A DNA stretch of 23,476 bases from a virus, in UHGV virus genome UHGV-0118082; one strand, given 5' to 3'. The translations under genes and the position numbers were made by a program. A model generated the notes under the pieces. It was not told where the DNA came from and searched no databases. It was given only the letters and a program-made list of their open reading frames with translations. Every line of letters begins with the position of its first letter. Position 1 is the first letter of the stretch. Below are positions 12,538 to 22,722 of the stretch, in pieces.

Positions 12538-13003
12538 AATTGCCAATGAATACGCAAAATTGATGGATTCAGATTTAGAACCAGAGATGATTGCTGACAC
12601 AATAGAAGGCATGGAAGGAGAATTTACCGATAAAATAGAGCAACTTCTTTCCGTCATTAAAAATGAATCTGGTTATGCTGAACGCCTCAAGGAAGAGGCA
12701 AAGTCACTGAATGAGCGAGCCGCAGTAATTCAAAATAAGATTGACAGCATCAAATCATATATAGCGTCATCGCTTGAAATGGTTGGCAAGAAAAATATTC
12801 GAGCAGGTATTCACCAGGTAACAATCCGCAAACCGTCAGAAATTGTAGAAATAATCGACTCAAGCGCCCTTCCTCCTGAATACGTTGAGTTTGAAACGAC
12901 AATTAAAGCCGACAAACTGGCAATCAAACACCAACTAAAAGCAGGAATAAATATCCCCGGTGCTCAACTCAAAGTTGGGAAACCTTCACTTCTTATCAAA
13001 TAA
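12521..13003 (+). CDS. Gp157-like protein commonly paired with RecT-type recombinases (function unknown)
   Basis: GTG at 12521 preceded by GGAGG (track start 12515 is TTG); ~160 aa, charged helical N-terminal half; immediately follows recT with overlap. Confidence 0.5.
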   Translation: MSKLYEIANEYAKLMDSDLEPEMIADTIEGMEGEFTDKIEQLLSVIKNESGYAERLKEEAKSLNERAAVIQNKIDSIKSYIASSLEMVGKKNIRAGIHQVTIRKPSEIVEIIDSSALPPEYVEFETTIKADKLAIKHQLKAGINIPGAQLKVGKPSLLIK

Positions 13004-13014
13004 CGGTATCGCCT

Positions 13015-13329
13015 ATGAAAAAGACTCCATGGGAGAAATGGGAAGTCGATTTCTTGCGCGAAGTAGCGGCGACAATGCCAGTTGAAGTTATTGCTGAAAA
13101 ACTGGAAAGGACTGAAAAATCAGTTATGGCGAAAGCAACAAGGATTGGCGCTGACATTGTTAGCCGACTTCGTGGAAGACGCTGGACAAGAGCTGAAGTA
13201 TCACTTTTCGGTAAGTTCTCCGCAGAAGAAATAGCAATTGCAACCTGCCGCTCAATTTATTCAGTAAGAGCTATGCGATACAAGCTAAAAAAACTTGATG
13301 AAGAAAGAGCAGGCATACGAATAAATTAA
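13015..13329 (+). CDS. Hypothetical protein with two tandem W-x-E/R-containing helical repeats (possible DNA-binding)
   Basis: 104 aa; internal repeat [13 protein letters not shown]... and [13 protein letters not shown]... Confidence 0.45.
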
Positions 13330-13345
13330 CAAAGAGGAATTTACC

Positions 13346-13510
13346 ATGAGAGGACTTGCATACAATCCCGGCATTCTTCCGGCAGAAATGATTATTCGCC
13401 AACGCGTAAAGCCAATGCCATCGAGAGAGGAATTGCTTAAGAGAAATTCTTTTCCATCAGTGAATCAAAACAAATATCTGAATGCGATGTGGCGGAGTGG
13501 AAAAAAATGA
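13346..13510 (+). CDS. Small hypothetical protein (54 aa)
   Basis: AGAGGA Shine-Dalgarno, ATG at 13346; stop overlaps the ATG at 13507 (ATGA). Confidence 0.3.
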
Positions 13511-14091
13511 AACAAATGACACTAATTGAGATGGATGGTTTTCTGAAAGGCAAATGCATCCCAAGTGATTTAAATGTTAACGAAACAAACGCTGAATATC
13601 TTGTCCGTAAGTTCGGTGAACTTGAATCAAAACTAGAAACGGCGTTGCGGGAGTGTCGTTCTGCTGGAATCACGATTGATAACCTTGAGGCCAAGTGCGC
13701 GGCGCTGGCTGTGGAGAATGCGTGGCTGAATAAATTTATCGTACAGAGTTGCTACGTGTTTGACGGCGAGCAGGGTGAACTATCTGATGCGTATATCTGC
13801 GCAATAGACGGAAGGATGCCGCAAACCCAAGTCACCGACGCTTTTTTGGATGAAGTGAAGACTGAAGCACGCAAGGAGGGAGCTTACTTTGTGGCGAACA
13901 GAATGCTGGCTGCCTGGGAAGCTGGTTTTATTGATGATACTGCGAAGAACGCCGCGGATATTGCCAGGATGATTATTACCTCTACTGAGTTTATGGCTAA
14001 TGCGCCGGAAGGCGATTTTGACCGCTCATTCTCTGATGGCGTTCTCGAAGATATCGCCGCCCAGCTTCGCAAAGGATGTGATCAAAAATGA
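13507..14091 (+). CDS. Hypothetical early-left protein
   Basis: Track ORF begins at GTG 13489; first in-frame ATG at 13507 overlaps upstream stop; 194 aa; no recognisable motif. Confidence 0.5.
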
Positions 14092-14705
14092 CAATCACAA
14101 AACAACGAGTAGAAGAAATCATATCGCGCATTGAAATGTATGGGCATGGTGCAGGGTATACCGTTGACGAGGTTTATGACCTTGCTGTACTGGCGTTGAA
14201 TTTATCAAATATCGCAAACCTTAAGCGATACGAGCTTGATATGGATGGTTGCGACTCGTTCGGTCAGGATTGTGGCGCTGACATGACTGAAGATCCTGAT
14301 GGCGATTATGTCCTGTTTGATGACGTGGTTAAGTTGTTTGAGTTTGATACAACCACCAAGAAGTTAGAAACCCCAGCCACCGACGCTTTCCTTGCTGAAG
14401 TACTGGCGCAGGTGGTGAAATCGCCATCCAATGCCGTTCAGTCAGTAATTGCAGAGCGTCAACGCCATCAATCAGCTGAGGGATGGACGCCTGAGCATGA
14501 TGACCAGTACAGCAAATCGCAGTTACTGTGGGCATCCTCATGCTACGTACTGAATGCCATCCATCCATTTAACCGCATTCCATTTGACTGGCCGTGGACA
14601 CCAGAATGGTGGAAGCGGACAAATCCACGCCGTGACCTGGTGAAAGCTGGCGCACTTATTCTGGCCGAAATTGAACGCATAGACCGCCAGGAGTCCGCCC
14701 AATGA
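14088..14705 (+). CDS. Hypothetical early-left protein
   Basis: 205 aa, ATGA-coupled to flanking genes. Confidence 0.5.
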   Translation: MTITKQRVEEIISRIEMYGHGAGYTVDEVYDLAVLALNLSNIANLKRYELDMDGCDSFGQDCGADMTEDPDGDYVLFDDVVKLFEFDTTTKKLETPATDAFLAEVLAQVVKSPSNAVQSVIAERQRHQSAEGWTPEHDDQYSKSQLLWASSCYVLNAIHPFNRIPFDWPWTPEWWKRTNPRRDLVKAGALILAEIERIDRQESAQ

Positions 14706-15208
14706 GCAACATCAACAAACAGGCGCTGCGTGAAGCGGCGGAGAAAGCAACGTGTGGTGTGTGGTCGCTCGAATATGGAGAGGAGAGATTTGATGCTGGT
14801 GATGCGCTAATTCATCGTGAAGTTGTTGGATATCTTCCCATTTGCAGAATTGAAGGAGCGCATCCAGAAAGCGGTTTCGATGAAGATTTCCAAATGGAAC
14901 AGCAGGCCAATGCTGAATTCATCACCGCAGCCAATCCGGCTACCGTCTTGGCGCTGCTGGATGAGCTGGAGAAGATGCAGGCGCAATCGTCCAAATGGTG
15001 CGAAGCCTTCCATAAAGCCGTTTCCGTTGGCGCTCGGTATGAGGAGCGGATTGCTGAACTGGAAGCACGGGAAATATCGCTCCCAGAACGTAGCAGTATG
15101 CTTCATCGAACAGATTTTCACGAGGATTACCAAACGGTAATGGCATACAAAGTTTCTGAAGTCATCGCTGCAATCCGCGCCGCAGGCATTCGCATCAAAG
15201 GAGAGTGA
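14702..15208 (+). CDS. Hypothetical early-left protein (loosely reminiscent of Ead/Ea22-like prophage proteins)
   Basis: 168 aa, ATGA-coupled; last gene before an intrinsic terminator. Confidence 0.5.
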   Translation: MSNINKQALREAAEKATCGVWSLEYGEERFDAGDALIHREVVGYLPICRIEGAHPESGFDEDFQMEQQANAEFITAANPATVLALLDELEKMQAQSSKWCEAFHKAVSVGARYEERIAELEAREISLPERSSMLHRTDFHEDYQTVMAYKVSEVIAAIRAAGIRIKGE

Positions 15209-15288
15209 TATGAGCACTGGATGATATGGGCGCAGATAGCGCATGCAGACGTAACCAATATTCGAATTGAAGAACTGAAAGAACACCA

Positions 15289-15313
15289 AGCCGCCTGATG
15301 GCGGTTTTTTATT
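15289..15313 (+). terminator. Intrinsic terminator after the early-left gene block
   Basis: CCGCC-tgat-GGCGG hairpin followed by TTTTTTATT. Confidence 0.7.
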
Positions 15314-15355
15314 GCCTGATTTGCAGGTTCGATTCCCTATTCGGAGATAGCACTC

Positions 15356-15556
15356 ATGCAACACGAACTACAACCTGATTCACTGGTTGATTTGAAATTC
15401 ATCATGGCTGATACTGGCTTTGGTAAAACCTTCATCTATGACCGGATTAAGTCCGGCGACCTGCCAAAAGCCAAAGTTATCCACGGGCGAGCAAGATGGT
15501 TATATCGTGACCATTGTGAATTCAAAAATAAGCTCTTAAGCCGCGCCAATGGGTAA
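15356..15556 (+). CDS. AlpA/Xis-like small HTH protein (excisionase or regulator) upstream of integrase
   Basis: 66 aa; LKFIMADTGFGKTFIYDRIKSGDLPKAKVIHGRARWLYRDHCEF fits the AlpA/excisionase HTH pattern; GGAGA Shine-Dalgarno. Confidence 0.7.
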   Translation: MQHELQPDSLVDLKFIMADTGFGKTFIYDRIKSGDLPKAKVIHGRARWLYRDHCEFKNKLLSRANG

Positions 15557-15828
15557 AATAGCGGGTAAAATATTTTTCACATCTAAAAAACACCATTCCA
15601 ATCAATCCCCTGCCGCCTCAAGTAGATGTCTGCAGGGGACAATACCTTTTCATTTCATCACGTTTCAACACACTTCACCTCCCCCCTTAAAACCAGCAAA
15701 ATCAGGGCCTGTCGCCTTGAACATGGTTTCAGTTGATTTCATGACATTACATGATTCTGATGGTATCGTTGATGGTACTCACGGTTCGATAAACCGATAC
15801 CATCAACTGACAACAAAGATTACTCTCC
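15557..15828 (+). promoter_or_regulatory. Integrase leader with direct and inverted repeats; candidate Int arm-type sites/att region
   Basis: GGGTAAAATA direct repeat (15551-15560, 15563-15572); inverted repeat GATGGTATCG / CGATACCATC (15759-15768, 15795-15804) plus an extra GATGGTAC copy; hairpin CCCCTGC...GCAGGGG at ~15607-15638. The track ORF 15549-15842 is considered non-coding. Confidence 0.3.
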
Positions 15829-17100
15829 ATGGCACTAAATGAGCTATCACCCAAGAAAGTTGAAAACGCTAAACCCAAAGAAACAGACTACAAACTGACG
15901 GATGGGGGAAGCCTGTATCTTTTAGTTAAAAAGAACGGGACCAAGGCATGGCGAATGAACTACAGATTTAACGGCAAACAAGCTACGCTGGCTTTGGGCG
16001 TTTTCCCAGACGTTTCGCTGGCACTTGCCCGTAAGCGTAGAGATGAAGCAAGGCAACTTTTAGCCGACGGTGTTGATCCCAGAGTATCTAAAAAAGCAGC
16101 GCCAACAGAACCCGCCTCTGCTACATTCCAGACAATCGCTTTAGAGTGGCATAAAGGCTCTATAGGCCATCCCTCATGGAAAGAGATTACCCGCACTAAA
16201 ATTTTAAGAGAAATGGAAAATCATATTTTCCCATATATCGGAAATAAACCCATCGACTCATTAAAAACAAGTGACCTGTTGCCATTATTGGTGAGGATGA
16301 GTGATCAGGGAATTGGAGCAACAACAGGAAGAGTGAAAACTACTCTTGCAAGCGTTTTCCGGTACGCTATTCAGCGTGGAATTGTTGAATACAATCCTAC
16401 CCATGATCTAAGAGGAGCAATTTCCAGCCCCAAAATAAAGCATCGCCCTGCACTTCCGTTAGAACGATTACCCGAATTAATATCAAAAATTGATAGCTAT
16501 ACAGGGAGGCCGTTAACTAAGCTGGCAGTATTATTTTCTCTTCATACTTTTGTTCGCTCCAGTGAACTGAGACACGCAAGATGGGAGGAAATTAATTTTG
16601 AAAATGCAATGTGGACTATTCCTGCTCAAAGAAAAAGAATTGATGGGGTAAAATATTCAGAGCGTGGGGCAAAAATGGGCAGTATTCATTATGTTCCATT
16701 ATCTAATGAAGCTATTGATGTTCTCGAAGCTATTAAAAAAATAAGTGGTGAGTATGAACTTATTTTCCCCGGAGATAGTAACCCTTACAAACCAATGAGT
16801 GAGAACACAGTTAATAAGTCATTAAGAATTATGGGGTACGACACGCAGGTGGACATTTGCCTTCATGGATTTAGGGCAATGGCGTGCTCAGCCCTGACAG
16901 AATCAGGCTTATGGTCGAGGGATGCAGTAGAACGGCAAATGAGCCATCAAGAACGAAATGAAGTGCGAGCCGCTTATGTACACTTAGCTCAGCATATGCA
17001 TGAACGTCGTCGGATGATGCAATGGTGGTCTAATTATATTGAAGCTAACACTGATAGATATATTGCCCCCTATAAAATGAAAAAACTACGCGTTGTTTGA
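15829..17100 (+). CDS. int: Tyrosine integrase, P4-type (DUF4102-like N-terminal arm-binding domain)
   Basis: 423 aa; N-terminal LYLLVKKNGTKAWRMNYRFNGK and C-terminal PMSENTVNKSLRIMGY...HGFRAMACS...ERQMSHQERNEVRAAYVH closely parallel P4 Int as recalled. Confidence 0.95.
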   Translation: MALNELSPKKVENAKPKETDYKLTDGGSLYLLVKKNGTKAWRMNYRFNGKQATLALGVFPDVSLALARKRRDEARQLLADGVDPRVSKKAAPTEPASATFQTIALEWHKGSIGHPSWKEITRTKILREMENHIFPYIGNKPIDSLKTSDLLPLLVRMSDQGIGATTGRVKTTLASVFRYAIQRGIVEYNPTHDLRGAISSPKIKHRPALPLERLPELISKIDSYTGRPLTKLAVLFSLHTFVRSSELRHARWEEINFENAMWTIPAQRKRIDGVKYSERGAKMGSIHYVPLSNEAIDVLEAIKKISGEYELIFPGDSNPYKPMSENTVNKSLRIMGYDTQVDICLHGFRAMACSALTESGLWSRDAVERQMSHQERNEVRAAYVHLAQHMHERRRMMQWWSNYIEANTDRYIAPYKMKKLRVV

Positions 17101-17174
17101 AAATAAGAAAATGGCTAATAGTAGTAAAGTCTGCTATTCGCCCCATTTTACCATATGTGCATACAGGTGACGTG

Positions 17175-18149
17175 ATGAGCGATAATACACGATTAAATGT
17201 TTGGGAAAGGAATAGTATTCCTGTAATGGAATTTTGCTCCCTAAAACGAGCTGCTGAACTACTTAATTGCCAAATTGATGACCTTATCCATTTTGCTCAA
17301 ATTGGAATTATCGAATTTTGCTTAGAATTAAATGGTTTCGAAGCTGCGCTAATGATGATGCGTAAAGGTGGAGATTTTAAAGATTGGGAAAACATGTACC
17401 CACCCAGAGTATTAAACTATAGTAATAAATCTGCATTAAGCCATTTCATACCAAAAGCAAAATTCGATATTGATTATACAGAAGATAAGCCATTTTCACC
17501 TCCAAAACAAATATACCATTTAGAAAACAAACCAAATATAAAAAGCCCATTAATCTTACTTTCTGGATTGTGGTCTATATGTGTCATCAGCCCAACATCT
17601 TCATTATACAAAGAACTAAAGGTATATGGTAAAGCAAGGCTATTAGCACATGATATTTCTTTTAAAGAAGCTAATATGCCATTCACTAATGCTGCATTTG
17701 GCAGTGATGAGTGGGTAATATTAGCAATGTCCCCTTTCGAAGGCTTATCATCAATAGAGGGATTAGTATCTCCATCTAATAAAAATATTATTGGAAATAT
17801 AACACTGGATGATATCTATTTAACAAGATACCAAATAGAAAAATTAGATAACGGTGTTGGCAAAGAGCTACCCAGCTATGTGAATGGTGGTGTATCCAGC
17901 ATCGAAAGCATCCGAAGAGTGCATGGTAATGTTGAAGCATCAGCAACAAAAAGAGAGGCAGTGTACAAAGCAGCTATTTATTGGTTACTAAATGACCCAG
18001 CATCTTGCAATGGAAAACGAGGAAAACTGACTATTGACGCGTGGGCAGATAAAATCGTGGCAGAAAGAAACAATCCAAAAACAAAGGTTGAACTTGGAAA
18101 AGATAAGATAAAAGAATGTCTTAGCTCATCTAAAGCAGGAAGATTTTAA
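17175..18149 (+). CDS. Hypothetical cargo protein, AT-rich, with possible N-terminal HTH; function unknown
   Basis: ATG at 17175 with AGGTGA Shine-Dalgarno (track start 17097 is TTG overlapping int stop); 324 aa; N-terminus FCSLKRAAELLNCQIDDLIHFAQIGII looks helix-turn-helix-like; no catalytic motif recognised; clearly more AT-rich than int and primase flanks. Confidence 0.6.
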   Translation: MSDNTRLNVWERNSIPVMEFCSLKRAAELLNCQIDDLIHFAQIGIIEFCLELNGFEAALMMMRKGGDFKDWENMYPPRVLNYSNKSALSHFIPKAKFDIDYTEDKPFSPPKQIYHLENKPNIKSPLILLSGLWSICVISPTSSLYKELKVYGKARLLAHDISFKEANMPFTNAAFGSDEWVILAMSPFEGLSSIEGLVSPSNKNIIGNITLDDIYLTRYQIEKLDNGVGKELPSYVNGGVSSIESIRRVHGNVEASATKREAVYKAAIYWLLNDPASCNGKRGKLTIDAWADKIVAERNNPKTKVELGKDKIKECLSSSKAGRF

Positions 18150-18220: not shown

Positions 18221-18248
18221 CTGCCGTGTTCATTACATAACACGGCAG
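18221..18248 (+). promoter_or_regulatory. Perfect 10-bp inverted repeat immediately upstream of alpA, overlapping its ribosome-binding region
   Basis: CTGCCGTGTT-cattacat-AACACGGCAG; right arm ends 8 nt before the alpA ATG; loop carries the CATTACA motif repeated at 18702-18747. Confidence 0.45.
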
Positions 18249-18466: not shown

Positions 18467-18517
18467 TATGACGACCTTAGAAAAATGGGAAAGAAGAAAA
18501 TCTTCCCCATGTATTTA

Positions 18518-18697
18518 TCAGTTCTTTGGTTCGGAACCACGACTTTGTAGCTCTTTGCGGATAATGCGTTTGATCCAAGCAGCCAGTGATTCATCACCAT
18601 CCTGCTGCTGTGCTTCTTCCATTAACTCACGCAATTCAGGGTCAAGTCTGAACTGGAATGGTGGATTACCACGTCTTTCGTTCTTGTGTGTTGACAC
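18518..18697 (-). CDS. Small ribbon-helix-helix-like protein (59 aa), divergent from the satellite early operon
   Basis: GTG start at 18697 inside a palindrome; translation ...PPFQFRLDPELRELMEEAQQQDGDESLAAWIKRIIRKELQ has the beta-strand then helix pattern of RHH/Arc-type proteins; no ATG start, weak evidence. Confidence 0.4.
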   Translation of the reverse strand: MSTHKNERRGNPPFQFRLDPELRELMEEAQQQDGDESLAAWIKRIIRKELQSRGSEPKN

Positions 18698-18747
18698 GTC
18701 AATTACACCTATTGTAATGTGCTTATGTGTAATGACACATTACACAC
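18691..18747. promoter_or_regulatory. Divergent promoter/operator region with three dyad-symmetric elements
   Basis: TTGAC-ac-GTCAA (18691-18702); ATTACA-cctat-TGTAAT (18702-18718); TGTGTAATG-aca-CATTACACA (18727-18747). Confidence 0.5.
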
Positions 18748-18828
18748 AAGGAATCAAAATAGCAACGCCCCGGAGTGTTTGCGGCACTGCCGAGGCGTCT
18801 GACCAAAGCGTTAGATGAGGTAACGAAA

Positions 18829-19005
18829 ATGGCTAAACAGAAGTGTACCTGGTTATTTGCGGCGATCAACCGCAGTCAACGCAATGCCCGTCCTGTGATG
18901 TTAAGGATCACCGCAGATAACGAGCGCTCAGCGCGGCGCAGACTTGCCCCGGACTATGTGCTGAGCTTTGCCGGTCGCATTCCCTGTGGAGGTGAACATG
19001 CGTAA
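18829..19005 (+). CDS. Small protein, possibly Icd-like (host cell division inhibitor family) - tentative
   Basis: ATG at 18829 with GAGGT Shine-Dalgarno (track start 18775 is GTG); 58 aa; TWLFAAINRSQ...LRITADNERSARRRLAPDYVLSFAGRIP resembles the Icd-like pattern as I recall it. Confidence 0.45.
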   Translation: MAKQKCTWLFAAINRSQRNARPVMLRITADNERSARRRLAPDYVLSFAGRIPCGGEHA

Positions 19006-19673: not shown

Positions 19674-20053
19674 ACCAGCCGCAGGTTTCTATTTTTCCGG
19701 CAGAAATGACCACTGCGCTTTACCGGCGGGCTATTGCATCGGCCTGGCGCCAGAAAGCGCTGACCGAAACCGGCTGCGATCACTATGGTCCGCACAGCCT
19801 GACGGTTGAACGTATTGAAATGGCCATTGCCCTGCATATCGAGTGCGCACTGATTAACGAATATGGCGAAGCACAGGGAGCAGCGGCTGCACTGGCGCTG
19901 CTGACTGACATGCTGGAGCCATCATTGCTGACCGCGCCACCGGTACTGACTGTGCGCGGCTGTGAAGTGATGGCGGAGCTGTACCGCACACTTCCGGCGG
20001 CATTTGATGACTTCTGCAGCTCGGGTGTATCGCTGTATCAGGGGGAAATATGA
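19670..20053 (+). CDS. Hypothetical satellite early protein
   Basis: 127 aa; GAAGGAGG Shine-Dalgarno; ATGA overlap with the primase gene. Confidence 0.55.
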   Translation: MNQPQVSIFPAEMTTALYRRAIASAWRQKALTETGCDHYGPHSLTVERIEMAIALHIECALINEYGEAQGAAAALALLTDMLEPSLLTAPPVLTVRGCEVMAELYRTLPAAFDDFCSSGVSLYQGEI

Positions 20054-22722
20054 CAACACAGACGGTTACGCAGATTTCAGCCGCAGCGCGGGGAAAATGG
20101 CCCGTCATTCTGCAGATGCTGCGTATTGATGTACCTGAAAACGGCAGGCACGGTCCCTGCCCGAAATGTGGGGGCAAGGATCGCTTCCGCCTCGATGACC
20201 TCGACGGGCGCGGGACGTGGATTTGCAGCCAGTGCGGCAATGGTGATGGTCTGGATCTGGTTAAGCTCATAACCGGTTACGGCATCAGAAAGGCAGCGCA
20301 GGAGGTGGCGCAGGTGCTTAATGTGCCGGATGTGCAGGAACTGCCCGTTAAGCCCGCCAGGCAAAAAGCCCCTAAACGCGATATGAGCCTTACCGTGGCG
20401 GCCCTGATGAAAGAGAGTCACACGGGAGAAAGCCCCTATCTGACCGGAAAAGGGTTCGCCGGATACCCGGCCTCCCTGACCGGGAGCGTGCAGCATATCA
20501 GTGGTAAGGATTTCCCTGCCGGTTCCCTGCTGTTACCGCTCACGACAAACGCCGGAGCCGTGACCGGTGCACAGCTTATCGCCCCGACGGGTGAAAAAAG
20601 CATACTGCCCGGCAGCACGATGAAAGGCGCGTTTGTGGCGCTCAGCCCGTTACCGTCTGAACCGCCGGTACAGGTGGTGATTACCGAAGGTTACGCCACG
20701 GCGCTGACGGTAAGCCAGCTCACCGCCGGATGCGTAGTGGCGGCCATATCGGCGGGCAACCTGCCCAACGTCGCACAGGCGCTGCGGGCACGCTGGCCTG
20801 AGGTAAAAATTATCATCGCCGGTGATAACGATTTTCAGGACGGGGGCGAGAATCCCGGCAGATCCTTTGCTGAACGGGCGGCAAAATCAGTCGGTGGCTG
20901 GGTGACGCTGCCACCGGGAGAAATTAAAGCTGACTGGAATGACTTCCACCGTGAGCACGGTATTACACGTGCCCGTGAAGCCTTTCGTAACGGTCTTGTA
21001 CTGTGCGGAGAAGGCCGCACGCAGTTGCCGCACGGGTTCCGTCTTACCCAGGAATATCTCTGGTATGAAAAACAGGTACAGCGCAACGGTGAGACGGAGA
21101 TCCAGAACGTCAAAATATGCAACCCGTTGCGCGTGACGGCAATCACCTGCGATGCTGATGGCGGTAATTTCGGGCGACTGCTGGAGTGGGAAGATACATG
21201 GGGAGAGCGCCGCCGCTGGGCGATGCCGATGGAAATGCTCAGTGGTAGCGGTGAGGAACTACGCCGGGTACTGCTGGTTAACGGGCTGTCCTATATCAGC
21301 ACCACCGGTGAGGCCCGCGCCCGCCTGATGGAATATATCTCGCTGTGTAAACCGGAACGCCGCGTGACCTGCGTCAGCCGCACTGGCTGGCATGGTCAGG
21401 TTTACGTCCTGCAGGATGAGGTCAGCGGTGAAGGTGCAGAGGGTGTCATTCTCCAGACCACTTCCGTGCAGGGGCGCGATTTCCGTGTGTCAGGTACAAC
21501 GGAGGAATGGCGGGAGCACGTTTCCCGTTACTGCACCGGTAACTCCCGCGTGGCGTTTGCCGTCAGTCTGGCCTTTGCTGCACCCCTGTTACGGCTGGTT
21601 GGGATGGACGGCGGCGGCTACCACCTCAAGGGGGAATCGACTGACGGTAAGACCACCACCATGAAAGCGGCAACCTCCGTTTGTGGCGGGCCTGATTACT
21701 GGCAGACGTGGCGGGCAACCGGCAACGCGCTGGAGGGATGCGCCAGCCGCCGCAACGATGCCGCCATGATGCTTGATGAGATCCGGGAGGTGGACGGACG
21801 CGAGGCGGGTAATATCGCCTACATGCTGGCAAACGGTCAGGGCAAGGGCCGTGCCGGTACGGACGGTGAGCTGCGCACCCGTAAGCAGTGGCGGCTGCTG
21901 TTCTTTTCAACCGGCGAGCTGTCACTGACCGAACATGCGGCAAAAGCCGGTGAGCGTACCTTTGCCGGGATGGAAGTCAGGATGATCCAGATCCCCAGCG
22001 ATTCCGGGAAATTTGGCGTATTTGAGGAGCTGCACGGCTTCGACAGCGGCAAGGCTCTGGCGGAACATCTGGAGTGGGCCACGTCCAGCTACTACGGTTC
22101 GCCGTTCAGGGAGTGGCTGAAAGCCCTGACCGCTGACCTTAACGGGCTGACGGCACAGGCAAAGTCACTGATGAAGGAATATACAGCCGCCCTGACCCCG
22201 AAAGATGCGGGTAATCAGGTAGGCCGGGCTGTGAACCGCTTTGCACTGGTGGCGATGGCGGGCGAGCTGGCAACCCGGCTGGGTATTACCGGCTGGCCTG
22301 AGGGTGAAGCGCTGCGGGCAACCCGCGTCTGCCTGAACGCATGGCTGAAAGATCGCGGGCACACCGCCAATCAGGAAGATATTGCCGCACTGGAGCAGGT
22401 ACGCAGCTTCTTTACCGCGAATCAGTACAGCCGCTTTGCTGACTGGCACGACGAGCGTAACCGCCCCGGCAATATGGTGGGCTGGCGCAGGGTGGAGAAA
22501 GGCAGTACCGCGCAGGGCACGGAGGCCGTCACCACGTTCTACGTCATGCCGTCCGGCTGGAAAGAAATCTGCCGGGGATTTGACCCGCGCAAGGTGGCGC
22601 GTCTGTGCGCGGATCGTGGATACCTGCTGCCCTCCACCGATGGCAAGCTGCAGACAACCATTCGCCCGCCAGAGATGAATCCCCGCAGACTCTATGTCTT
22701 CAACAGCGAGGTGCCGGGTTAA
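20050..22722 (+). CDS. Primase-helicase (P4 alpha-like: zinc ribbon + TOPRIM primase + P-loop NTPase)
   Basis: 890 aa; CPKCGG...CSQCG zinc ribbon; TOPRIM-like acidic motifs (VITEGYATA, IIAGDND); Walker A GESTDGKTT and Walker B-like MMLDEIRE. Confidence 0.9.
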   Translation: MTTQTVTQISAAARGKWPVILQMLRIDVPENGRHGPCPKCGGKDRFRLDDLDGRGTWICSQCGNGDGLDLVKLITGYGIRKAAQEVAQVLNVPDVQELPVKPARQKAPKRDMSLTVAALMKESHTGESPYLTGKGFAGYPASLTGSVQHISGKDFPAGSLLLPLTTNAGAVTGAQLIAPTGEKSILPGSTMKGAFVALSPLPSEPPVQVVITEGYATALTVSQLTAGCVVAAISAGNLPNVAQALRARWPEVKIIIAGDNDFQDGGENPGRSFAERAAKSVGGWVTLPPGEIKADWNDFHREHGITRAREAFRNGLVLCGEGRTQLPHGFRLTQEYLWYEKQVQRNGETEIQNVKICNPLRVTAITCDADGGNFGRLLEWEDTWGERRRWAMPMEMLSGSGEELRRVLLVNGLSYISTTGEARARLMEYISLCKPERRVTCVSRTGWHGQVYVLQDEVSGEGAEGVILQTTSVQGRDFRVSGTTEEWREHVSRYCTGNSRVAFAVSLAFAAPLLRLVGMDGGGYHLKGESTDGKTTTMKAATSVCGGPDYWQTWRATGNALEGCASRRNDAAMMLDEIREVDGREAGNIAYMLANGQGKGRAGTDGELRTRKQWRLLFFSTGELSLTEHAAKAGERTFAGMEVRMIQIPSDSGKFGVFEELHGFDSGKALAEHLEWATSSYYGSPFREWLKALTADLNGLTAQAKSLMKEYTAALTPKDAGNQVGRAVNRFALVAMAGELATRLGITGWPEGEALRATRVCLNAWLKDRGHTANQEDIAALEQVRSFFTANQYSRFADWHDERNRPGNMVGWRRVEKGSTAQGTEAVTTFYVMPSGWKEICRGFDPRKVARLCADRGYLLPSTDGKLQTTIRPPEMNPRRLYVFNSEVPG

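Follow-up and report, generated by a model that had tools for sequence, protein, structure and literature searches.

A putative immunity-type switch with an Arc-like repressor and face-to-face promoters in a P4-like satellite

Background

In phage P22 the short antisense RNA sar covers the ribosome-binding site of a gene downstream, and in plasmid pMV158 the cis-antisense RNAII blocks translation of the replication gene. At the DNA level, the P22 ribbon-helix-helix (RHH) protein Arc represses the overlapping promoters Pant and Pmnt, with a dimer binding each half of a symmetric operator, and the CopG operator consists of inverted 4-bp boxes that overlap a promoter (PMC2724298). The silence of P4-like and Gram-negative PICI satellites (PICI, phage-inducible chromosomal island) and their waking by a helper phage are known in detail only for P4, in which a processed sense-strand CI RNA causes premature termination (PMC10111431); otherwise they are attributed to AlpA, and the literature on satellite regulation as a whole invokes either AlpA or CI-type RNAs (PMC13612085, PMC8628076, PMC10111431). 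We searched the literature and found no RHH repressor in satellites. Here we analyze what appears to be a P4-like satellite in the virus genome UHGV-0118082, in a stretch of 23,476 nucleotides that is hereinafter termed the window. We consider it probable that the 160-bp control region between a small minus-strand gene for an Arc-like RHH protein and the operon leading from an icd-like gene to the primase is an immunity-type switch of this satellite, in which the RHH protein would act as a repressor on operators placed over face-to-face promoters.

The predicted arrangement recalls the P22 immI (Mnt/Arc) region in several respects. Both have small RHH proteins and palindromic operators, here putative ones, of 16-21 bp, on which a dimer of dimers would be expected to bind here as well; as in P22, one set of operators would serve two overlapping opposed promoters, and the repressor gene, like mnt, is transcribed away from the controlled operon. 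Arc chains are also the best structural matches to the RHH protein of the window, and the predicted short antisense RNA over the ribosome-binding site of the downstream gene is reminiscent of sar. The size of the operators and their inverted boxes of 4-6 bp match the Arc/CopG mode of binding (PMC2724298). There are also clear differences from P22. The sequence similarity to Arc is weak (PHROG E=5e-6, no PDB sequence match), there is a single repressor gene instead of two, and its 59-aa product lacks the C-terminal tetramerisation domain of Mnt. The boxes are of the GTGT/ACAC type, not TAGA, and what would be controlled is the icd-like gene and replication operon of a satellite, not an antirepressor. 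With pMV158 the locus shares a minimal RHH repressor predicted to act on the promoter of a replication operon, and the cis-antisense design of the predicted RNA resembles RNAII. However, copG is co-transcribed with repB from the repressed promoter, whereas the RHH gene is divergent and has a predicted promoter of its own, and pMV158 is a rolling-circle plasmid as opposed to an integrated satellite.

P4 immunity (PLE, the CI RNA with seqA/seqC, and Vis) controls an early operon ending in an alpha-type primase, and the predicted switch has the equivalent genomic position and role (the equivalent of the leftward operon); the P4-type integrase, alpA/vis, a capsid-morphogenesis gene that we read as sid-like, delta and a (here predicted) RNA layer on the leader are further common features. 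Unlike in P4, a protein repressor and a predicted antisense RNA would here take the place of the CI RNA, and no match to C4 or isrK was found. FinP/traJ of the F-like plasmids offers another parallel, namely a two-hairpin antisense RNA of ~79 nt directed against a 5' untranslated region and ribosome-binding site through loop-loop complementarity. The type of switch (an RHH repressor, symmetric operators, overlapping promoters and perhaps an antisense RNA) is well known, but this instance is undescribed.

Conserved operator-like sites

An earlier reading of this DNA, made from the sequence alone, had listed three adjacent dyads: TTGAC-ac-GTCAA at 18691-18702 (dyad 1), ATTACA-cctat-TGTAAT at 18702-18718 (dyad 2) and the palindrome TGTGTAATG-aca-CATTACACA at 18726-18746 (dyad 3). 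All three are exact. To examine their fate in evolution we used a set of 46 non-identical copies of the region, drawn from E. coli plus one genome per species across ~24 genera, which range from Escherichia to Xenorhabdus, Erwinia, Gilliamella and Frischella. In E. coli, parts of a 561-bp query match 580 of 5,426 complete genomes, with at least 80% of the query matched in 72 of them. The consensus of the 46 relatives is TGTGTgTTGACAc.T.aAtTACac.....gTA.TGT.tttATGTGT.aTgACAcATTAC...cA........AAA...CAAc, and on its 3' side come a conserved hairpin, TcT.ACCA, another hairpin and ATGGCT. Two loci, L051 and L052, which form a type C, yielded no confident parse.

The best-conserved symmetry in this alignment is the 16-bp palindrome ATGTGT-AATG-ACACAT at 18725-18740 (O2), which covers both of the start sites predicted below. 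Its arms are complementary in 41-46 of the 46 relatives and its central 4 bp are variable; 36 relatives match ATGTGT-N4-ACACAT without any mismatch, and all do so with at most two. The arms are invariant whereas the neighbouring columns (18721-24 and 18743-56) vary, and they occupy positions at which neither promoter requires a specific sequence. A second site, TTGTGT-GTTG-ACACGT at 18684-18699 (O3), is situated over both the rightward -35 box and the opening codons of the RHH gene and has two mismatches to the same pattern. There are one to three mismatches at O3 in 44 of the 46 relatives and a single mismatch in 14 loci; in homologues from this last group the annotated start is an ATG four codons further in. 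When up to two mismatches to ATGTGTN4ACACAT are allowed, the window has four sites as against 1.2 expected, and two of these are O2 and O3. Beyond them, a satellite-wide search at this threshold gave one site in int, which is probably due to chance, and no credible further copy.

A third element, AATTACAC at 18701-18708 (O1; consensus aAtTACac), is situated in the spacer of the rightward promoter and corresponds to the right half of the O2 consensus, AAT(T/G)ACAC. Its centre (18702.5) is 30 bp from that of O2 (18732.5), which is the spacing of the full boxes in the type B loci described below. CACCT (18706-18710), in the 3' part of O1, is the reverse complement of AGGTG, the Shine-Dalgarno sequence of the RHH gene. 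We also considered O1 as a full palindrome and rejected this, as it disagrees with the 16-bp consensus at 6-10 positions; it qualifies as a half-site only.

Against this background the three dyads are only in part conserved. In dyad 1 the pair 18693/18700 is kept in 22 of the 46 relatives and 18695/18698 in 31; its left arm, TTGACA, is invariant and its right arm drifts to GTTAA, CTAAA or CTTAA. It appears to be made up of the -35 box of the rightward promoter and the GTG start codon of the RHH gene. Dyad 2, with pairs kept in 28-44 of 46 and no compensatory changes, similarly seems to combine the half-site AATTACAC on the left with the -10 region TAATGT on the right. The inner pairs of dyad 3 are conserved; its three outer pairs are found in just 16-25 of 46, and its centre is displaced by 3.5 bp from that of the conserved palindrome. 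A repeat finder extends dyad 3 to arms of 13 nt with 92% complementarity and reports overlapping alternatives, ATGTGT/ACACAT with 4 nt between the arms and TGTAATGTG/CACATTACA with 14 nt, as well as the direct repeat TGTGTGTTGACAC/TGTGTAATGACAC, whose copies are 41 bp apart. The earlier proposal of a dense operator array between the RHH gene and the primase operon is thus right as to the presence of operator-like repeats in the regulatory core. The equation of three dyads with three operators is not supported, and the location is not strictly intergenic, for the GTG start (18697-18695) is inside dyad 1. TGTAATG, which had been offered as a search motif, revealed no further credible sites across the satellite; one copy is in a hairpin loop upstream of alpA.

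Predicted overlapping face-to-face promoters

The predicted rightward promoter (P_R, plus strand), of the sigma-70 type, can be recognized by its perfect -35 box TTGACA (18691-18696), which is invariant or nearly so in the 46 relatives and also in the other operator types, and by the -10 box TAATGT (18715-18720), 18 nt after it, with a predicted start at ~18727. The column counts of the latter (T45 A44 A31 T43 G45 T45 of 46) show that it is conserved as TA(A/G/T)TGT. Seven relatives with a 1-nt deletion have a spacer of 17 nt in place of 18, and at the same -10 position type B loci have TATGAT and locus L003 has TATAAT. TGTAAT at 18713-18718, which would give a 16-nt spacer, was dropped as the -10 box: 18713 is T in only 27 of 46 and this hexamer is lost in L035 and L048, whereas TAATGT is kept.

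The leftward promoter (P_L, minus strand) has as its putative -10 box another TAATGT (18737-18742; ACATTA on the plus strand, within the right arm of dyad 3), with column counts of A46 C41 A43 T46 T46 A46. Its putative -35 box, TTGCTA (18760-18765), overlaps the U-tract and the base of a predicted antisense terminator, and its TTG (18765-63; CAA on the plus strand) shows a conservation of at least 90%. In the 17-bp stretch that separates these hexamers the sequence varies, with zero gaps in the 46 aligned relatives; L045 is rearranged there. We place P_L here because a stretch that changes in sequence but not in length is what one expects of a promoter spacer. The start would be at ~18730, which gives the RHH mRNA a predicted leader of 33 nt with AGGTG (reverse complement of 18706-10) positioned 8 nt before the GTG. 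P_R and P_L hence appear to be face-to-face and overlapping, with O2 over both predicted start regions. The conserved hexamers do not agree with the simple back-to-back layout implied by the divergent promoter of the sequence-only reading.

The boxes follow the RHH protein

Evidence on the identity of the binding protein comes from loci in which the genes of the element have been reassorted (identities below are to the proteins of the window). In L005 the Icd-like protein and the primase are 98% and 99% identical, the RHH protein is 54% identical and AlpA 29%. The boxes of this locus, termed type B, are different: ACATGGTAATTACC is present twice, 30 bp apart. In L005, as in L053, which is of the same type, the two copies immediately follow the -35 box and the -10 box, respectively, at the positions of O1 and O2 relative to these hexamers in the window. 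Conversely, boxes as in the window are found in L003 (RHH 88%, AlpA 23%) and in L006 and L007 (RHH 88%, AlpA 22-23%, Icd-like 29-36%, primase 4-20%). More distant loci with RHH proteins of the YlcI/YnfO type (L003b, L008b) have boxes of their own, which again immediately follow TTGAC(G) and the -10 box, in the form of three copies of GTGTAAGACAC or two of GTGGnCCACACCT. The identity of the boxes therefore tracks the RHH protein and not AlpA, the Icd-like protein or the primase, which supports the RHH protein as the predicted binder and argues against both AlpA and origin iterons. The sequence-only reading had named the RHH-like protein and/or AlpA as binders. Of these, AlpA is not supported: the same boxes accompany an 88% identical RHH protein in loci whose AlpA is merely 22-23% identical.

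Some of these loci show further rearrangements. L003 (2998-4400) and L008 (3000-4240) have two cassettes in tandem: a type A RHH gene and operator followed by a truncated icd-like start, and then a second cassette with a YlcI/YnfO-type RHH gene, its own set of boxes (GTGTAAGACAC or GTGGnCCACACCT) and the same leader once more. In L004 (NZ_AP027442.1, the 60-kb plasmid pEC291_3; 2973-3700) a cassette of RHH gene, operator, leader and icd-like gene adjoins a WYL protein and a BREX system, and remnants of IS903B and IS3 substitute for int and alpA. This locus is probably the relic of a satellite, with a defence cargo.

The predicted repressor is encoded by an open reading frame of 59 codons on the minus strand (18518-18697) that starts with GTG. 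Its product matches PHROG 228 ('Arc-like repressor') at E=4.9e-6 and the NCBIfam model YlcI/YnfO (NF041551, YlcI/YnfO_N) with 20.1 bits (E=5e-4), short of the 30-bit cut-off, and some close homologues are named YlcI/YnfO by PGAP. It belongs to no Pfam family, and a sequence search of PDB gave spurious matches only. In an AlphaFold model of the monomer, built with 30 homologues, the predicted local distance difference test score (pLDDT) is 79 and reaches at least 90 for 35 residues. The modelled extended segment (1-19) and two helices (20-33 and 38-52) have the layout of an RHH fold. The top Foldseek matches in PDB are almost all RHH domains (Arc, NikR, CopG, VapB, MazE/MazE9, CopA_SO), the best being P22 Arc, 1myl_A, with a TM score of 0.83 on the target. 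By eye, the alternating pattern F-Q-F-R-L of residues 14-18 resembles F-N-L-R-W of Arc. On these grounds we accept that the small minus-strand gene encodes an RHH protein. In the literature that we searched, the gene is named only as a hypothetical or 'YlcI/YnfO prophage-associated' protein.

The proposed switch and its alternatives

In the switch that we propose, P_R would drive the operon from the icd-like gene to the primase and P_L the gene of the 59-aa RHH protein, the two transcripts overlapping by ~4 nt. A dimer of dimers of the RHH protein would bind ATGTGT-N4-ACACAT at O2 and O3, and probably also the half-site O1. With distances between centres of 11 bp (O3-O1), 30 bp (O1-O2) and 41 bp (O3-O2), that is, about one turn and three turns for the first two, the sites would lie roughly on one face of the helix, so that cooperative binding is conceivable. 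Occupied operators would exclude RNA polymerase from P_R and keep the replication operon silent, and would also damp P_L, which amounts to autoregulation of the repressor. A predicted antisense RNA, complementary to the ribosome-binding site of the icd-like gene, might add a second, post-transcriptional layer.

Several points weigh against this proposal. The palindromes are insignificant by chance statistics alone: the window has three perfect dyads with 9-nt arms and loops of up to 5 nt as against 0.6 expected, and at least one such dyad occurs in 40% of dinucleotide shuffles; the cluster of five dyads with 6-nt arms is matched in 11% of shuffles; and TGTAATG, with eight copies as against 4.2 expected, three of them in this region, is only mildly enriched. 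Dyads 1 and 2 are unremarkable alone, as one finds 84 dyads with arms of 6 nt and 245 with arms of 5 nt in the window. For O3 and O1, the -35 box, coding and the Shine-Dalgarno sequence are confounders of the conservation seen. At O2 the columns are invariant, so that covariation within a type is absent and the argument has to be made from switching between types. Both -10 boxes match the consensus at three of six positions, with TAnnnT kept, and on this account a promoter consensus scan reported neither P_R nor P_L. The pairs that it reported instead were GTGTCA-16-TACAAT (minus strand) and ATGACA-17-CAAAAT (plus strand). We rejected both: TACAAT is TACATC or TACAAC in most relatives, and 18755-60 falls in the variable stretch. 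The start sites of P_R and P_L are themselves read from hexamers and conservation, and the Foldseek E-values of the RHH protein are ~1, as is expected for a query of 59 aa. More generally, the comparison provides conservation and co-variation of sequence, from which we infer binding and transcription.

Among the alternatives, one could view the 21-bp palindrome as an RNA stem-loop with which the P_R transcript would begin (GUGUAAUG-ACA-CAUUACAC) and which would stabilize the mRNA or modulate its translation, in place of an operator or in addition to it. A transcript from 18727 does fold with this 8-bp hairpin right at its 5' terminus, most relatives could form a 6-bp stem (18729-34 with 18738-43), and in 16 of them 18731/18741 has G opposite T, which makes a G.U pair only in RNA of the plus strand. 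Nevertheless, the outer pairs are kept in 16-25 of 46, C at 18731 or T at 18734 disrupts inner pairs, and the best-conserved symmetry, ATGTGT/ACACAT centred at 18732.5, is off the register of the hairpin. O3, which precedes the start site, cannot be part of the transcript, and the type B loci repeat their box in the untranscribed spacer. We therefore regard the stem-loop as unlikely to account for the palindrome. It is somewhat less probable still that there is no dedicated operator at all, and that the conserved blocks are merely promoter hexamers, Shine-Dalgarno sequence and start codon, with a symmetry that arises from two facing TAATGT -10 boxes. The chance statistics given above agree with such a view, and so does the perfect complementarity of TGTAATGTG (18713-21) and CACATTACA (18736-44), which contain the two -10 boxes. 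It leaves unexplained, however, why ATGTGT (18725-30) and ACAC (18735-38), which are outside the hexamers in discriminator or early-transcribed positions, are invariant across ~24 genera, why six of six positions are conserved in each -10 box, non-consensus ones included, and why other RHH types have type-specific repeats at the same positions.

The repeats might instead be bound by AlpA, a Vis-like helix-turn-helix (HTH) protein, which would activate or repress the operon as AlpA does for the operons of PICIs. In favor of this, alpA is 230 bp upstream on the same strand, and proteins of this family have been credited with a master regulatory role in Gram-negative PICIs and in P4-like elements (PMC13612085, PMC8628076). 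However, the boxes are retained where AlpA has diverged to 22-23% identity and altered where the RHH protein changes, the module persists in L004 in the absence of alpA, and a terminator-like hairpin separates alpA from the switch region, all of which make AlpA an improbable binder. The faintest of the candidates that we weighed is that the repeats are replication-origin iterons for the primase/helicase of the satellite. The origins of P4 and of PICIs do contain short repeats bound by the replication protein, but here the repeats differ in L005, with its 99% identical primase, and are the same in L006 and L007, with primases that are unrelated (4-20% identical); moreover, they overlap the -35, -10 and start-site positions. 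A CRP site (TGTGA-N6-TCACA) was rejected on account of its wrong spacing, and arm sites for the integrase or Xis were likewise considered and rejected.

A structured leader and a predicted antisense RNA

The sequence-only reading saw in the dyads the main switch of the satellite. This is plausible, but it is only part of the picture, for a structured leader and a predicted antisense RNA come directly downstream. The leader has two covarying hairpins. Hairpin 1 (18765-18798; 18765-77 with 18785-98) would serve on the minus strand as a terminator of the antisense RNA, being followed on that strand by the U-tract UUGCUAUUUU. Double changes are seen in 10 of its 13 pairs; its non-Watson-Crick cells comprise 29 A.C and 6 G.U; and in 29 of 30 loci the minus-strand RNA is its more stable form (mean -20.4 versus -16.3 kcal/mol, p=2e-6). 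The other hairpin, CGTTA/TAACG (18809-18825; 18809-13 with 18821-25), has the loop GATGAGG with the Shine-Dalgarno sequence of the icd-like gene (GAGG); 92.6% of its cells are paired and nine loci have a double change from GC to AU. For the two hairpins together, 88% of cells are paired versus 26-43% when the partners are slid, double changes occur in 13 of 18 pairs, and none of 500 shuffles reaches the observed values.

On the minus strand, TACACT (18842-18847) resembles a -10 box and might be part of a promoter, P_as, of the predicted antisense RNA. In 46 of 48 loci the pattern TAnnnT is found exactly 10 nt upstream of the reverse-complemented icd-like start codon; the codons of the icd-like gene under it encode different residues and a T-ending codon is always kept. 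From this conserved TAnnnT, the bias in minus-strand stability, the excess of A.C over G.U and the U-tract we predict a cis-antisense RNA of ~78 nt, running on the minus strand from ~18834 to ~18757 over the ribosome-binding site and start codon of the icd-like gene. Its loop CCUCAUC is complementary to the Shine-Dalgarno loop of the mRNA, and its fold has a z-score of -3.4. No Rfam family reaches the threshold in the whole window at gathering scores, and a search of 18600-18900 at E up to 10 gave no C4 or isrK and nothing else that is credible. The only near-match for the leader is traJ_5, which at 18.6 bits (E=1.2) stays below its gathering score of 50, so that the leader is not a member of this family.

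Two side observations concern the leader (18765-18828, plus strand). Between its hairpins is an invariant TCTnACCA, the CCA of which may pair with the UGG of AUGG. The leader is also the most widely conserved DNA of the region, with short matches beside icd-like genes in many other E. coli genomes; a search of a phage database gave three short matches only, all to the leader.

A possible class of satellite switches

Taken more broadly, though here we are tentative, the comparison raises the possibility that in Enterobacterales an undescribed large class of satellites and PICI-like islands has exchanged the CI-RNA immunity of P4 for a compact three-promoter cassette, composed of an Arc-like repressor, type-specific operators on face-to-face promoters and a cis-antisense RNA over the icd-like start, which is swapped as a module among elements with different AlpA, primase and cargo. 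The cassette class extends to Orbaceae, and one protein homologue was found in Pasteurellaceae. Were this correct, the RHH protein would define 'immunity types' of satellites and would be a likely target of helper-phage inducers. For elements from ~24 genera the cassette provides a concrete and testable pair of predicted repressor and operator, along with a possible antisense RNA, and types A and B, which occur on otherwise identical operons, are natural specificity variants suited to swaps.

Genomic setting

The segment 18450-19010 of the window is 100% identical to an element of E. coli Evo1 located at a tRNA-Arg beside yfdC. The gene order there is integrase, hypothetical, HTH (AlpA-like), the small minus-strand gene, icd-like, three small genes, a TOPRIM/DUF927 primase, then a 'phage capsid morphogenesis protein', which we take to be sid-like, and ogr/Delta; the retrieved stretch of this locus showed neither psu nor epsilon. 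Of the genes expected in a P4-like satellite, the window itself contains int, an alpA-like gene and a Toprim/DUF927 primase (Pfam), and the assignments of the integrase, AlpA, Icd-like, DUF5375 and primase genes were upheld by Pfam and NCBIfam. The Icd-like gene (18829-19005, plus strand; NCBIfam phage_ICD_like, E=5.5e-24) is the first of the operon under predicted repression and is followed by genes for a DUF4222-like protein, DUF5375 and the Toprim/DUF927 primase (20050-22722; Pfam). No tRNA genes were found in the window; the identical Evo1 satellite directly adjoins its tRNA-Arg. The satellite of the window is directly preceded, in tandem, by the end of a KplE1/CPS-53-like prophage (13000-15640) with torI at 15356-15556 and, upstream of it, ead/Ea22-like and DUF551 genes.

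The convergent alpA and RHH genes are separated by the terminator-like hairpin mentioned above (18485-18510), for which a motif scan gives a stem of 10 pairs and, after it, a T run on the minus strand. There is a weaker T run on the plus strand, and the hairpin may be bidirectional, insulating the switch from transcription of int and alpA. Between int and alpA is an open reading frame of 350 aa (17097-18149) with only a weak match to PHROG 7144 (function unknown) and none in Pfam or NCBIfam; in relatives this position is occupied by variable cargo, for example a TIR-domain protein in L007. Just 5' of the Shine-Dalgarno sequence and start codon (18257) of alpA there is a perfect 10-bp inverted repeat, CTGCCGTGTT-cattacat-AACACGGCAG (18221-18248), which might control alpA as an RNA hairpin or as the binding site of a regulator; in L002 it is preserved, with one change that is compatible with a G.U pair on the plus strand.

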